Assembly (NCBI GenBank): GCA_964016885.1
Contig: OZ024742.1
Coordinates: forward strand, 212,784,001 to 212,848,000
Direction of reading: 5' to 3'
Source of the DNA: Eledone cirrhosa
Lineage: Eukaryota
Length of the DNA: 64,000 bases
Shown here piece after piece: positions 49,588 to 64,000 of the stretch (the first letter of the stretch is position 1; each line of letters begins with the position of its first letter). The notes beneath the pieces were generated by a model. The model did no database searches. It was given only the letters and a program-made list of their open reading frames with translations, and was not told the DNA's origin. The position numbers and the translations under genes are program-made.

Positions 49588-51730
49588 GATAACTTTGACA
49601 ACTTTGATAGGTTTTGGCCAGTATTGACCAGGCCATGACTAACTTAATAGCACCACCTGGCGAAGTCTGTCAAATCGGGATTTGGACATCATGGCACACC
49701 CAAGAAGGGAGTTATTGTTTACGGAGACATATCCGGGTGTAGGAGGTTTATAAGGGATTTCTTGAAGGATCTTGTCCAAAGATACTTTAAACTTGATGGG
49801 GTCTGTTTCTGTTTTAATGTGTTTTGGTGTAATGTTAAAGAGAGCGGGGCCAATTGAGGTGAAATAATTGTGCCGTATTGTTGTTATGAGGTGCGAGTGT
49901 GATTTTTGTCGTGGTCGGATAGCACGGGCCCAAGCCTTGGGTGTAGTTTAAAGGTGATGCCAACATCATTTGAGCAATGCTGATGGAATAATTTCCACAT
50001 AATGCAGATAATGTAGCACTCACGGCGGCGATGGGGAGAATAAAGTTTGAGTTTTTCTAGTCGACCCCAATAGTCAAAGCCTGACATGCCATCTATCTTT
50101 TTCGTGATTGACCCTTTGAGGAGCTTCAATTTTCATGATACTTTGTTTCGTGTGGGGAGACCACAGTGGACAAAGTATTCAAGGTGGAGTCGGGCAAAAG
50201 TAGAGAAGAGAAGGATAATAGTGTGGATATCCCTCGACTGGAAATTTCTGAGAATCCAGGAACACATTCTGGGGGCTATGTCAACTTTGCTGTTTATATG
50301 AGTGGCCCAGCTTATGTTGTTGTCCACAATTACTCCCAAGTTGTTGGATGCCACGAGAATTTCACCAGAAGGAAGGGAGTATGGGAGTTTCAGGGTATCC
50401 TCTTTTCCAAAGTCGATTAACTCAAATTTATCCTCGTTCAGCAGCATATTGTTCTTTTCGGCCCATTGGATAACAGCAAGAAGATCGGATTAAAAGCATA
50501 TCCGGTCACCCACGCCATTGATGACCTTCTGGAGCTTGGAATCATCTGCGAAAATGTTTATGCTGCTGTGCTTGATGATGTCAGTAATGTCATTAATATA
50601 GATAATGAAAAGAAGTGGGCCCAACACAGTGCCTTGTGGGACACCACTACTGACTTTGGCTGGGCTTGATTGTACTCCTTCGACTACAACATGTTGGGCT
50701 CTGTTTGAAAGGAAACACTTGGTCCACTGCAGCAACTTTCCAGTGACACCAATGCTGGATAGTTTTCTCAGTTGAATCTTGTGATCAACCCTGTCAAAGG
50801 CTTTGCTGAAATCAAGGTAGATGACAAGGTAGATGACAAGGCAGCTACTACATCAAAGTGATGTAGTAGCTGCGTTAGGCAATCCCTTCGATGACAGAAC
50901 CCATGTTGGCTGGAGTTCAGCAGATTGTTACTTTCGAGAAACTGAGTCGTTCGTGATCTCACCATCCTCTCAAATACCTTAATGATATGAGCGATGAGTG
51001 ATACTGGACGGTAATTCACGACAAGGGATTTGTTTCCCTTTTTGAAAACTGGGACAACAGACTGGGATAGTAAATTTTCTGGTATATATCCAGCATCCAG
51101 AGTGCCATTTTCATCAATTAGAGGGCCAACAGTGGAACCAGTGATTTTGTGTTTTTTCGCAAATGAAAAGAACACTATGGGTTTGAGTTTGATTTTCTCA
51201 ATGGCCCAGGCCTCTTGAGCTGCTCTTTGATTGTTGATGATGGACATCATGCTGTTTTGGAGGTTGTGTTTTTTTCGATTCTAGCCAAATGGATGTGTTG
51301 GTGTTGGCAGGATTTTAGTTTGTTGATTTTTTTTTGTTAATTTAAAATTTTTTCTGGTGAGTGTTCTATTTCTAGGAATTCAGCACATAGATTTGTTTAC
51401 AGATCTTGATGGGATATGTTTTACACATATATTTGTTACAACGTCTACAAATGACTGCCATGATTTTTTTATGTTAGTGGGTGTGTGAGTGTGAGTGAAA
51501 GACCAATCGACATGTACAAGATCATGATTGATCGCTTCCCAGTTTGCATTATGAAGAGCCATGGTGTCAAATGGATGAACCGGAGAGATGTCAATGGGTT
51601 TGCGTTTTGGACGGTGGAATCTCAGATCACAGAGAACCTTGTCATGGTCTGAGAGGAGTTCTTTCCACTGCAATATTGTGGATAGCGTCAGTGTGGTTAC
51701 TGAACATTAGACCCAAGACGTTTTTGTGGA
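49588..51730 (-). mobile_element. 5'-truncated, internally deleted CR1/L2-group LINE
   Basis: NYRPVSL, QHGFC, SGVPQGTVLGPLLFIIYINDI, FADD and LEKLKLYSPHRRRE; short (CAAAGTTRT)n tail. Confidence 0.9.
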
Positions 51731-51779: not shown

Positions 51780-54700
51780 TAAATATTGTTATACTTTGGG
51801 AGGGTCATATTACCAATAAGAAACACACGCACTAGTTGCTTTCACTCCAATTTATTATAAATTAAATTATAAATTAAAATTTTTTTTAATAAATTTCCGG
51901 TTGGTTGGTTCCACAACCGGACGGTTGTTCATATATTGTCAAAGTTCTTTCGTCACACATTCTGTGACCTCATCAGTCACCGGGGATTCTTTTCTTTGTT
52001 TTGTGCCTCTCCTTTGTTCTGTCCTACGCCATCTTGTTTTTGTGTGTGTTGTGTGCTTAGTTTGCGCATGTGTTACATCCGGGTGTCCGTATGTGTTTTT
52101 ATTTGTTTATTTATTTGTTTATTTACATGTTACTAGTTGGTTGTTTGTTCTATGTGTGTGTGTTTTCATTTTGTCCTTAATTGTAAGTTGTGATGTTGCT
52201 ATTCCATTCATGTTTTCTATTTAATTTTGGTTGGAGTTCATTTATGTTTATTGCCTCTGTGATTTATCTAAACATTGCGTCTTTTCTGTGTGCAGATTTT
52301 ATTTTTATTTCTATGTTCTCTAATTTGCCCTTATGTTCTATTTTAGCATGTTGGTGGAGTACTGATGATTCTTTTCTATCTTGAATCTCTCGTCAGTGTT
52401 CATTTAATCGTTCTCTTATACTACGAGCTGTCTCAACTATGTACATTATATTCTTATCTTTACATTGTCCCTCAGTACACCTTATGCTATATACTATGTT
52501 TCTAGTTTTACAGTTAATATGGGGGCTTAGTTTACAGATTATGCATTTCTTATCTATACAGGGAGGTCTTTGAAAAGGGTATGTATTACTAATAAGTGTT
52601 TTTATGGTGGTATCTGGTCTTTCCACTATCTTAATATTTAGTTTAAGTTTATCTAGGGCTCTTCTAAATTTGTAAGCTTGTTCACCTCTAGGGGTTGTAT
52701 TGATGAACATTACACTCTGGTATTTATTGCTATCATACCATGAGTTTATTCTATTAACCTTATTCCTAGTTCTTTCTATTCTATTCCAAAATTTACTCCT
52801 ATACAAGGGGCAGGTCCCATTTGTATCATTAATTACCATTTTTTCCCATTTGGTTCTGGCTTCTCTATATACTCTGATTTTATCTATATGATTGTAACCA
52901 GAGAACTGCATACGGTGGATGAAGTGTTGTATGTGTCTCTCTAGTTCTTTGGGGTTGCACATGCGGGACACGTTCCTCATCACCCGTACTAAATCCGCAA
53001 TCAGTATGTTGATTTTGGTGTGATCCGAAACAGCTGAGTTTCGGTGGATCAGGTATTTGGAAGTCATGGGTTTGGCATAATGGGTATGGAGGATTTGTTT
53101 TTTGTTATCAATGGTTTCTAACCAGAGTTCTGTGTCTAGTACAGGTAATCGATGGTTGGGGTGTTCGCTTGGGTAGTCTCTAGTAATTTTAATACTCTGG
53201 TGGATGGAGTTAGCTATTTGCTGGATGCTTTCCATTGTGTTTTTCTCTAATTCCTGACTGTTCTCTAGTGGGGGTGTTTTTACTACGATGTTTATATCAT
53301 CAACGTAGCGGGAGTACATAATCAGGGTTAAGAGGTTGTTGTCTTCTAATTGTTCTTTAAGTTTATTGTCCCACCATACCATGAATAGGTTAGCTATGTC
53401 ACCTGCAATGGCTGCTCTCTCTTCTTGGGCATATGTTTTTCCATTAAATTTGAACATATGTTCCTTAAGGGTTAGTTTTATACTGGCCCCCACCGCATGT
53501 GCAATCATTTTTTTTATAGTTCATCTGGTTTTCAGGGGTCCGTATGGCTCTGGTCCACCCGCTCCATCTTTCTGTGTGGGTTTTTTTGGCCATTGAGGTA
53601 ATGGCAGGTGGTCTGCCTCTTGCTGGCCTTGTGGGACAGAGGTTGCTAAGGTCATACGTATCTAGATAATCATTATTATATGTAAGTTTAAGTAGAAGTC
53701 CCAGCTCACTGGTATCAATCCCACGGAATTCAACATTGCTCTCACTAATCATTTCCACGCATTTCTCCACAGCAAAATTCACATCAGTGGATGGGTATAG
53801 GGACACTACATCCATACTACCTATTATACAGTCTGTAAGGTCCTTAGACAGGTTATTTTCGCTGATTCTGCTGAGGAGGTCCTCCGTGCTGTCACATATA
53901 TCCGGGATATTTCAATGATGGGGCGTATGATCAGGGAGAGGAAGTAGGAAAGTCTGTAGTTGCTAGCAATGTTAGCTCCACAGACTGGCCGTGTTGGTGG
54001 TCCTGTGACTGGGTCACTGTTCGTCTTATGGTCTTTTCGAAGCCCATACGACGCTGGCACGTCATTGTTCCAGGCCTGGAAGTTGTTGGCAGTCCGTTTA
54101 TTGGGCTGCATTATGTTTGTCCACATCATCATATGAGCGTTGAGGGTTTTCTCCCTATCCTCATGCTCTTGTGGTGTTACTTCTCTTGTGTTAGTGATGT
54201 GGGGTTGCATTGCCTGGATATAGTTTGACAGACTGTCAACCGACATTCTGCCAGACTTGTCTGTTGGAAAGCATGCAATCTCTCCATTACATGAGCGCTG
54301 CATGAGCTTACGCAAGCCATTTGCAGATTTTTCTCCCAGTTGCTGGGCCTCCATTCTACTTTGCCTCTTGCTATACTGTTCTATAATATTTCTAAGTTTA
54401 GATCTAGCTATATTAAATTGTGCTTCTGTTTGTTCATCGACCTGCGACGGCAATTGTGTGCGTTTTTTAAAAGCTAAAGTCGTGGCGTGGACTCATTGTA
54501 AGTCGAAGGACATATCAGAAGGATTATAAAAAGTAGAATTCCAGGTTGCGGTGTGTGTTCTATTGCTATTGTTAGTTGTGTTGTTGTTTCTATTTTTATT
54601 TCCACCAACTGCCTCATGGTTGTTTCTATGTCTCTCATTGTTACTCCTGTCTCTTCCTTCTGGCTCATTGTTACTATCTAGTCTATTTTGTGTGTCTGTG

Positions 54701-58176: not shown

Positions 58177-58315
58177 ATAGAACACACTCACGGTTTGGTT
58201 GGTTTTCACTTCTGTATCTTTTATATCTCCATAGTTAATTTATTGGTCAATCAATGTTTGTCATTGATTGACCAACGGTTAAAAATACAAATATAAATAT
58301 ATATATATATATAGT

Positions 58316-58739: not shown

Positions 58740-60053
<1,314 letters not shown>

Positions 60054-60054
<1 letters not shown>

Positions 60055-60305
60055 ATGGCGTAGGACAGAAGAAAGGAAAGGCACAGAAACAAAGAAGGAA
60101 TCCCCAGTCACTGAAGAGGTCACAGAGTGTGTGACGAAAGGACTATGACTATATATAAACAACTATCTGGTTGTGGAACCAACCAACCAACCAGAAATTT
60201 ATAAATTTGTAAATTTGTAAATTTATAAATATATAATAAATTGAAGTGAAAGCAACTGGTGCGTGTGTTTCTTATTGGCAACATGACCCTCCCAAAGTAT
60301 AACAA

Positions 60306-60306
<1 letters not shown>
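60054..60306 (+). mobile_element. solo Penelope pseudo-LTR (copy C)
   Basis: closely similar to the reverse complement of 51780-52032; (TA)n on both flanks. Confidence 0.88.
60106..60150 (+). ncRNA. minimal type I hammerhead (family alpha, copy C)
   Basis: AGTCA-CTGAAGA-G-GTCACA gagtg TGTGAC-GAAA-GGAC-TA-TGACT; perfect stems I and II. Confidence 0.82.
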
Positions 60307-60997
<691 letters not shown>

Positions 60998-61001
60998 AGG
61001 A

Positions 61002-61107
61002 ACCAGTAAGACCCCGACAGCTGAGCTCAAGCCGTTTCGACGGCTAATTCTGAGTCCAGAATTAGCCGTCGAAACGGCTTGAGCTCAGCTGTCGGGGTCT
61101 TACTGGT
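61002..61107. repeat. perfect GC-rich inverted repeat, 51-bp arms, 4-nt loop AGTC
   Basis: 61002-61052 is the exact reverse complement of 61057-61107. Confidence 0.95.
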
Positions 61108-61187
61108 CCTATTACCCACTCTACTACCACAAGTATTGAGTACTTTGGTGCGTTATGGTCCACCTGGTTCCTTACCACATTCCTTCG

Positions 61188-61231
61188 TTATATAATATAT
61201 ATATATATATATAGCATATAATATATATATA

Positions 61232-61299
<68 letters not shown>

Positions 61300-61312
61300 T
61301 ATATATATAATA

Positions 61313-61343
<31 letters not shown>

Positions 61344-61349
61344 CATATA

Positions 61350-61380
<31 letters not shown>

Positions 61381-61526
61381 TATACATATAATATATATAT
61401 ATATATACATATAATATATATATATGTATATATATATATACATATAATATATATATATGTATATATATATGTATATATATATATATGTATATATATATAT
61501 ACATATAATATATATATATGTATATA

Positions 61527-61614
<88 letters not shown>

Positions 61615-61620
61615 GTATAT

Positions 61621-61668
<48 letters not shown>

Positions 61669-61675
61669 GTATATA

Positions 61676-61720
<45 letters not shown>

Positions 61721-61730
61721 GTATATATAT
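61188..61730. repeat. (TA)n-derived array
   Basis: directly visible. Confidence 0.95.
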
Positions 61731-64000
61731 ACTAAAGACATTCCTATACCTGGTAAATCTGAATTCACCAAACTTCTGATTGAAAAAACTGACTGCTTTG
61801 TGAGAGGCTTAGATGGGTAGCTTTTTTTCCACGACCAGCGCCAAAAAGGAAATTTCTATACTAAGGAACATAACTTTCTTGATCATTTATTTAACTTTAG
61901 AAGAAATCCTCCTTCCAACAAAAATCTAGTGCAGTTCGAGGAAAAATTATCTAATATTATAAGAAGTCTTAAATTCAAGAGAAACCTTTACAGAGGACAA
62001 AACTAATAATTTATATGGTGTATCTAGGGATAACTATAATAACCTCATCCTTAAGGAACTAAGGAAGAATTATCGTAAGACTAACCATGACAATTTGGAA
62101 TCTATAAACTTTGAAGCTTCTGAGATTATGTCAAAACCTGGCATAGAAAAAAAGACCGAACCATTCCTCCCAAGAACTCCGAGGATAAATCTCAAGGATC
62201 ATAAAAGTAATTTTCGAACGGAACTACCTGTTAGACTAATCGCCCCCTCTAAATCAGATCTGGGGGTTGTTAGTAAAGCCATCTTGGATAGAATGATCCC
62301 ACAGGTTCGTTCTAATTGCTCTATTTCTAACTTAAATTTATGGTTTGGTACATCTGAAGTAATTGGCTGGTTCAACAACCTGAATAAGAAAAACAAACAA
62401 AAATTTATTCAATTTGATATTGCCAGCTACTATTCTTCTATTTCGCCTTCACTTCTCAACAATGCTCTATCTTTCGCATTTAAATATTCTGACATCACCA
62501 CAGATGAACTTAACATCATTCTCACCGCAAGAAACAACATCTTAGAATTCAACAATGAATACTGGACTAGAGCCGAACTTCCAACAACTTTGATATCAGA
62601 ATGGCTGCTTCCGATTCATCGCAATTGACTGATTTGATTGGTATTTTTATTTTGAATTCTTTAAATCGGAAAATTCCTCAACTTCGCGGTGGAATTTATC
62701 GTGACGATGGACTTTTTACTATCTTAAATTGCAACTTAGTTAACCTTAATATTATTAAGAACAATATACGTGATCTCTTTAAGCAACATAACCTTAAAAT
62801 TGAATTTGATAACAACGTCAAACTAGCTAACTTCTTGGATGTATCCCTTAATCTTGACACTGGCCTATATTACCCTTACCATAAAAACAATGAGAATCTA
62901 AATTATGTTAATTTTAAATCTACCCACCCCACTAACATTAAAAATGCTATAGTCAGTAATATTGGAAAAAGAATATCAAACCTATCCTCTAATAAATATA
63001 TCTTCGATGCTAACGCCAATTACTATAATAATGCGCTTTCTAAAGCCGGTTATCCTGATAAAATTAAATACAGTAAAGAAACCTAGAAGGTCTTAGAGTA
63101 AAATAATTAATTATGAACATTCCAATAACTTAAATAAAAGACCTAGATACAAAAATATAATCTGGTATAATGCTCCTTTCTCTATTTCTATTAATAATAA
63201 TATTCCTAAACTATTCTTTAGGGCCTTAGATAAATGCTTCCCTCCCTCACATATCTATAGTAAAATCTTTAACAAACACAATAACATTTTCTTATTTCAC
63301 CTCTTCCAACATCTCTAACATTATCTCTAAACACAACAATAAAATATTAAATATTAAATCACATCCTTCCAACACTGAGCGTCATAATAATAGCAATAGT
63401 ACTCCCGACGTCATTGTTAACTCTAGGCTAGATTCTGTAAACTTAAATACGACGTCAAACGTAACTTCGTTGAATGTTCATAATACCAATCTAAATCAGG
63501 AAACTATTATTCCTATCGTAAATAACTGCTCCAATCCAATTCCTCCTATAAATAATACCAGGTCACTTGTTAATAACTCTGTTAATTTCTCTAATCGTAA
63601 TTGTAATTGCCCTGTTAGAACTAAATGTCCTCTTAATAACCATTGTCTTGATAAAAACTTAGTCTATGAATGTAAGGTTATAACTGATACTAATTCCTTT
63701 ACCTATTTCGGTTCCACTTCCACCTCCTTCAAAGCTAGATTTTATAATCACAATTCGTCTTTTAAATACCAACTTAAAAGAACTAACACGGCACTCTCGG
63801 AACTCATATGGTCCTTGAAAGACAAAAATATTAACTATAACACCTCTTGGAGAAAAGTTTGTTCTGCCTCTCCTTACTTGAATTCCTCCCTATCCAGAAC
63901 ATATAATCTCTGCCTAGCTGAGAAATTTACCATTATATCTAATTTCAATTCTATAATAAATAGACGCACGGATTTATTTTCTCTCTGCTTGCATAAATTC
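61730..64000 (+). mobile_element. Penelope-like element (Neptune-type), runs off the window end
   Basis: KDIPIPG, LKDHKSNF..PVRLIAPSKSDLG, QFDIASYYSSI, GGIYRDD, NFLDV, STHP; CNC..CPLNNHCLDKNLVYEC..YFGST..FKARFYNH GIY-YIG domain; frameshifted. Confidence 0.92.

Follow-up and report, generated by a model that had tools for sequence, protein, structure and literature searches.

The window analysed in this study, a stretch of 64,000 nucleotides from Eledone cirrhosa, contains two exact reverse complements of 51 bp each (61002-61052 and 61057-61107) that flank the tetranucleotide AGTC, and the question is how one half of a hammerhead ribozyme came to be joined head to head with its own inverted copy. 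The perfect fold-back had been reported in a reading made without database searches (the sequence-only reading) and was confirmed: the next-best GC-containing palindrome in the 64-kb window measures 15 bp, as against the 51 bp of 61002-61107, and the RNA fold of the palindrome gave z = -17.9, with 0 of 200 shuffles as good. Small perfect inverted repeats of 15 and 14 bp are also found elsewhere in the window, at 50841-50873 and 58243-58275. The hairpin is a 190-bp insertion within (TA)n, with a unit extending from 60999 to ~61190, and its features are listed in Table 1. Arm positions were numbered with the G of GAAA (window 61071) as 0. The right arm had been correctly described as the 3' strand of stem II, GAAA, stem III and a GUC, all of which were located at 61063-61093 with the 3' strand of stem I beyond. 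The native 5' core strand and the 5' strand of stem I of this type I hammerhead are missing from the copy, and the inverted arm stands in their place. The G at 61052 can be read either as a left-arm base or as a cap-derived base. Literature is cited throughout for the portions of each source that were compared.

Table 1. Features of the hairpin and its flanks (window positions; signed numbers are parent positions relative to the G of GAAA).
Feature	Position	Strand	Remark
(TA)n target array, left flank	60300-60998	.	Last ATA overlaps the inner end motif of the element; (TA)n surroundings in 30/30 family loci read
Inverted untailed arm, parent +39 down to -14 (or -13 plus shared G)	60999-61052	-	
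Head-to-head junction, G 61052 then A(-18) 61053	61052-61053	+	A(-18) would be the capped first base
Direct arm, parent -18 to +39	61053-61109	+	3' half of type I hammerhead
Stem II, 3' strand	61063-61070	+	
GAAA	61071-61074	+	
Stem III	61074-61092	+	
GUC cleavage site	after C 61093	+	
Stem I, 3' strand	61094-61098	+	
TAT at inner fixed end (+42)	61110-61112	+	Join of untailed arms to (TA)n
PLE tail, ~80 nt	61113-61191	+	Ends at +122 (TAT), the outer fixed end; in the parent the sequence runs on into the ORF leader
(TA)n target array, right flank	61192-61730	.	

The parent, a Penelope-like element (PLE), was read at locus L087, where an inverted copy with tail and a truncated direct copy with tail are followed by a full tailless unit carrying an intact 719-aa ORF. 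This arrangement, a tail-bearing partial tandem plus an inverted copy with a unit of 3,118 bp, is the long form of the EN+ PLE insertion unit. The inverted arm of the window hairpin, TAT included, is identical to the parent at 57/57 positions, and full arms extend to GGAACC/GGT(T)CC. Relative both to the parent and to contigs of public runs, the window copy is one T short at two places, after 61106 and after 61179, and carries A in place of T at 61129. Contigs of the X1 and X4 runs covered 27/27 bins of the stretch, including the junction bin, with no single piece spanning the junction. An assembly artefact was ruled out by copy number, junction variety and coverage in the public-run contigs. 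A non-LTR retrozyme, which consists of tandem units with a complete hammerhead in each (bioRxiv 10.64898/2026.07.22.740005), was rejected as well, the insertion being a single unit with half a ribozyme. The locus itself is an ordinary dead PLE copy, a dead-end insertion that consists of two short head-to-head terminal-repeat arms with a tail at one end; the sequence-only reading was right to see in it an inverted PLE pseudo-LTR segment.

The single ORF of the parent encodes a reverse transcriptase (RT) with YRDD, followed by a C-terminal GIY-YIG-type nuclease with an IY..YIG-like stretch; the domains were assigned by motif, and Pfam and PDB searches with the protein returned no match. The motifs SDKTG, LRWR, CNCPDRSIC (CxCX5C), CNLC (CxxC) and CKH (CxH) were read from the sequence and, together with the (TA)n target, place the parent in the Hydra clade of PLEs as far as motifs can assign it. 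This clade is characterised by a ~3.1-kb unit with a single ORF, DKT, RWK, a CxCX5C linker, CxxC and CxH, (TA)n and a hammerhead (PMC8557442). The parent shares the unit length, the single ORF, DKT, CxCX5C, CxxC/CxH around E and N, the (TA)n target and the hammerhead in the repeat, but it has RWR instead of RWK, and a U3-A8 (or C3-A8) core with a long loop II instead of a canonical hammerhead. Its repeat also carries a CC(A/T)6GG stretch just upstream of stem I, at L087:4296-4305 and in all long copies, which we take to be CArG-like.

The sequence-only reading had placed the hairpin between TA arrays and upstream of a PLE ORF. The arrays were found on both sides, whereas the downstream ORF could not be retained as the source. 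This neighbouring ORF (window 61740-64000 and L056:2000-3300) is a frameshifted Hydra-type PLE of a third family; a hammerhead-like motif belonging to it lies near L056:3200-3262, with (TA)n after it. Because it shows only 39-44% amino acid identity to the parent, no blastn match at E 1e-3 and a ribozyme-like end motif of its own, it was rejected as the parent and regarded as a neighbour. A Pfam search with pieces of this ORF gave no match.

The minimum-energy fold of L087:4290-4412 is a type I hammerhead with three helices around the core (z = -0.56, not above shuffles), and the same fold is the minimum-energy fold in only some family variants. It comprises stem I (ACCCC/GGGGT), the core (T/C)TGAGAA, a bulged stem II, GAAA, a 6-bp stem III and GUC; the core, YTGAKAA in general, sits 55-61 nt upstream of GAAA, and loop II, of ~37 nt, contains a small hairpin. 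A fold-back centred on stem II had been proposed; the symmetry centre is not the stem II loop but lies at parent -14/-18, on the 3' side of loop II. Intact hammerheads were predicted to exist elsewhere with the spelling CTGANGA. They do exist, as judged from 4,141 matches to the ribozyme 5' half, but their core reads (T/C)TGAGAA or TTGATAA; a pattern with CTGANGA within 36 nt of GAAA gave 25 matches, mostly chance junctions or ribozymes of other families. An Rfam search with the half motif of the window returned only microRNA-type hairpin matches below the gathering score, and no hammerhead family. A further hammerhead family, with a YY1-like AAGATGGC in loop II, was noticed at L035, L042 and L047 (upstream, - strand) and L021 (downstream), and is a candidate second case of a promoter inside a ribozyme.

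A DNA search with the window unit returned 2,085 candidates, and each of the 40 that were scored showed 98% identity or more across the full unit. The copy belongs to a young subfamily, and ongoing conversion, one of the two causes that had been suggested, is not required for its zero mismatches. Genome-wide, at least 10,139 tight fold-backs and at least 38,642 matches to the ribozyme 3' half were counted, both with exact patterns and hence as lower bounds; matches to the 5' half amount to about one ninth of the latter number. Among 44 sampled fold-backs, 38 distinct junction centres were found; most are blunt or overlap by 1-2 nt, and short additions or A-runs occur at some. The junction of the window makes up 5 of the first 50 fold-backs listed, is carried by at least 40 near-identical copies and occurs in three subfamilies with the tail on either arm type (L146, L186 and the window), a recurrence that would be explained by the G shared between the left arm and the cap copy (TTCT-G-A(-18)). 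Neighbouring insertions of family copies with short (TA)n between them form clusters at L013/L014, L018, L121 and L171-L173, and at L091 (G000:C1:27009513, 27009770 and 27010027) three direct copies with 257-bp spacing form a short tandem with ORF-leader sequence.

At their 3' sides, the arms end at two fixed TAT motifs, +42 and +122 (121 arms, contig C1), and exactly one tail was present in 44/44 short fold-backs. The tailed arm was longer in 17 of these, the untailed arm in 18, and both were equal in 9; self-priming of one cDNA, part of the mechanism put forward in the sequence-only reading, predicts a longer tailed arm and does not agree with this distribution. Paired arms carry the same subfamily allele in 3,408 (AA) and 3,669 (BB) cases and differ in 29, compared with ~3,550 mixed pairs expected at random. 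Two tails were seen in 3/20 mixed-allele fold-backs examined and in 1/94 others (P = 0.017). These counts fit a scheme in which a single RNA with two start sites is normally used and two RNAs only exceptionally; same-allele arms are also expected if the subfamilies had separate periods of activity, and later gene conversion could have produced the 29 mixed pairs.

The 5' ends were determined for the first 100 arms listed on contig C1 plus neighbours (n = 121), a sample taken from the start of C1 and made up of arms with stem III. As predicted, the breakpoints are clustered: 105 ends lie within 24 nt of GAAA (88 of them at -11 to -23), 2 at -25 to -89 and 14 at -90 or beyond, so that the rate of 5' ends is 39-fold higher before the wall than past it. 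An apparent second pile of ends at -90/-95 reflects the divergence of other subfamilies from the reference and is not a wall. The wall is sharp at -18 to -22. In 36/44 fold-backs the longer arm reaches -16 to -22, a number in which 4 cases are inflated by 2-3 nt through scoring tolerance at two variant positions; it never reaches further, and its commonest reach is -17 (12/44), not -18 or -22. The ribozyme cut was rejected as the general breakpoint. Scored by eye, the start coincides with the cut clearly in 11 arms and ambiguously in 6, at most ~17 among the 100 listed of 674 lopsided fold-backs, or ~1% of all fold-backs; 6 of the 11 clear starts are explained by a GG overlap.

Extra bases at the wall were scored in the first 50 of 2,205 fold-backs in which both arms reach -18. 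Among the 82 cDNA ends flanking inserts of at least 2 nt, 61 continue with the parental A; the remaining 21, which end at -18, have an added C in 14 cases, G in 5 and T in 2 (P = 0.002 against 1/3). In the same 50 fold-backs, single-base inserts are C.G in 6/7, the base after -22 is C in 8 cases, the parental G in 6 and A in 1, and C is present on both ends at -18 in six loci. The added C could be a plain terminal addition at any template end rather than a copy of the cap. An extra G derived from the m7G cap is known for L1 and for AMV RT (PMC4038843). Runs of up to ~17 T on the 5' side of A(-18), corresponding to A-tails on cDNA ends, were also observed in copies without an inverted arm (L078, L111/L112, L118).

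Promoter-like sequences around the wall were judged against the general consensus letters of the initiator (TCAKTY) and of the TATA, YY1, NRF1 and ETS motifs. Initiator-like A residues lie at the wall, at -22 (TCATTT) and -18 (TTAGTC or TCAGTC), and appear to fit the initiator consensus. They are situated 25-31 nt below a TATA-like box that overlaps the 5' strand of stem II and is degenerate in some subfamilies (TATTCATA, TACTTAAA); in long copies where both were read, the TATA-like T precedes A(-18) by 29 or 31 nt. From DNA footprints and these motifs, we infer that transcription starts at A(-18)/A(-22). Transcription of D. virilis Penelope starts within its own repeat (PMC2377424).

A second (TA)n-targeting family allowed a comparison of wall and ribozyme. 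It is represented by 15,668 matches, among them a short copy at window 60053-60305 (+) with a complete small hammerhead (core at 60111) and a further window copy near 51948-51976 (-). The copy at 60053-60305 begins at a YY1-like motif, and long copies have NRF1-like and ETS-like motifs upstream. Among 30 arms of this family, long ones number 22 and short ones 8; all short arms end within ~25 nt upstream of the YY1-like motif, below the NRF1-like/ETS-like motifs, 3 of them with an extra G (by eye). The wall of this family is thus found ~55-80 nt upstream of the ribozyme core, at promoter-like motifs and outside the ribozyme, and therefore follows promoter-like sequence and not the ribozyme. Human start sites have YY1 sites immediately downstream of them and NRF1 sites on the upstream side (PMC11269187, a human study).

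The parent element, the two fixed 3' ends used once each, the wall, the varied junctions and the extra G, all of them observed, would be accounted for if the cut (TA)n strands both prime on one RNA and the two cDNAs are extended until they run off the capped 5' end of this RNA, inside loop II, before they are joined head to head, a mechanism to which we assign a probability of about three in four. Briefly, transcription would be driven by the TATA-like box over the 5' strand of stem II and start at A(-18) and A(-22), inside loop II. At its front, such an mRNA would have no more than the 3' half of the ribozyme and so could not cut itself there. The enzyme would then cut both (TA)n strands, and reverse transcription would be primed close to the front end of the RNA, at +42 and at +122; these positions probably correspond to the pair of internal sites at which the RT of another PLE starts in vitro. 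Both cDNAs, nearly always made from one RNA, would each run to the capped 5' end, after which their 3' ends would be trimmed and joined with 0-2 nt overlap or short additions, either by host end-joining or by a jump of the RT onto the partner cDNA. Long copies would arise from starts at the downstream repeat of a tandem transcript.

Other explanations were weighed against this one. On a longer RNA, the RT might stall on both strands at the distal loop II hairpin, or at a bound protein, with the stalled cDNAs being joined. The wall indeed coincides with the 3' strand of the small hairpin predicted in loop II (-22 to -14), but that hairpin is weak, and its pairing varies among subfamilies while the wall stays at AGT. 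The RT would moreover have passed stems I, III and II before reaching it, arms beyond -24 seldom end in the rest of stem II (2/16), the extra C and the A-runs point to a template end, and the wall of the second family lies outside its ribozyme; we consider a stall unlikely. Slightly less is to be said for a single run-off cDNA that folds on itself with little pairing, and not through stem II, to prime its own second strand. Self-priming has been proposed for PLE palindromes (PMC3846280), and arms share alleles in 99.6% of pairs. However, the tailed arm should then always be the longer one instead of in 17 cases against 18, the stop would have to fall exactly at +42 every time, and loop-free palindromic centres, cap-like C on both ends and the 29 mixed-subfamily pairs all occur, which makes this course quite improbable.

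The breakpoints adjoin the 3' strand of stem II, as would suit the sequence-only reading, according to which a cDNA snapped back through stem II pairing and self-primed its second strand. This reading fails for the present family because the left arm reproduces the right arm exactly and is not the native 5' strand. The centre contains neither that strand nor loop II, and the predicted loop-retaining product gave 0 matches (exact pattern, three subfamily spellings) against the 10,139 fold-backs, leaving it next to no credence. Self-priming on an antisense transcript, the published proposal for head-to-head PLE junctions (Arkhipova et al. 2013, PMC3846280), is very unlikely here: the extra base, a G, is located on the 5' side of the sense strand, at initiator-like A residues, and the proposal explains neither why the sense-strand wall is fixed nor why one tail occurs on either arm. 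We regard as similarly implausible that the hairpin is a non-autonomous MITE- or SINE-like element copied whole from masters. The abundance of near-identical copies with the junction of the window speaks for such copying, whereas the many distinct centres speak against it, and the recurrence of that junction in three subfamilies with the tail on either arm type is as expected of repeated new formation. A MITE-like element of fixed structure, with terminal inverted repeats copied whole, was ruled out by the 38 centres in 44 and the tail on one side, so that the fold-backs are not one master multiplied, in agreement with the sequence-only reading.

If capped run-off of two cDNAs is indeed the mechanism, the ten thousand junctions of this one family yield a base-exact prediction, namely capped sense starts at -18/-22 and two cDNAs per break. 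They also bear on the role of the hammerhead: the templates here would be uncut, and the front ribozyme copy would be without its 5' core. In a wider reading, which we put forward tentatively and would sooner expect to fail than to hold, PLE palindromes in general would be fossil 5' maps, left by a dimeric enzyme that uses both strands of a single break as primers and starts at two internal sites of the same capped sense RNA. In the hairpin family, the promoter would be built into the hammerhead with the start in loop II, and the inactive half ribozyme of the mRNA could be completed only by the 5' half in the downstream repeat; the resulting split ribozyme might cleave 40 nt downstream of the cap.

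In L1 twin priming, two primers from one target break produce an inversion, the second primer annealing internally so that the arms do not overlap. The hairpin family would share with L1 the two primers from one break that lead to inversion and the extra G that marks a copy made to the cap (PMC4038843), but here both arms copy the same stretch, which results in a palindrome. According to Craig et al. (2021, PMC8557442) and Arkhipova et al. (2013, PMC3846280), the insertion unit of endonuclease-bearing (EN+) PLEs consists of a 5'-truncated copy and an adjacent inverted copy with a tail at one end; PMC3846280 explains PLE palindromes by self-priming on an antisense template. The portions compared describe the same head-to-head inverted pseudo-LTR, junction palindrome, single-end tail and microsatellite target; the hairpin family differs in a tail of ~80 nt instead of 30-40, in a unit that is cut down to ~190 bp in >10,000 copies, in its fixed 5' wall and in the extra G. 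The insertion layout is thus already known, and the origin of the inverted and tandem ends of PLEs was named as open (PMC8557442). Cap run-off or twin priming in PLEs, and with them the two-cDNA cap run-off mechanism, were not found in the literature searched, mostly open-access main text; the Hydra consensus file of PMC8557442 may include the family. The hairpin family contributes a putative start site inside loop II of the ribozyme, the zero count for the product of a stem II snap-back, and the counts of alleles and tails.

The protein of PAc (Poseidon of Anolis) cuts and extends both target strands in vitro on an uncleaved RNA template (Frangieh et al. 2024, PMC11167929), with RT starting at two internal sites that bound the tail. 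The hairpin family would have in common with it the two fixed RT start points bounding the tail, the cutting and extension of both strands and the uncleaved RNA template; PAc belongs to another clade, and inverted junctions, 5' run-off and the cap lie outside the portion of PMC11167929 compared. As in the PLE hammerheads described by Cervera and de la Pena (2014, PMC4209133), which include the U3-A8 core variant in Schistosoma, the parent has a type I motif in the pseudo-LTR, U3-A8, an extra base before stem II and a bulged stem II. It is set apart from those compared by its 6-bp stem III and by a ~37-nt loop II that would hold the transcription start.
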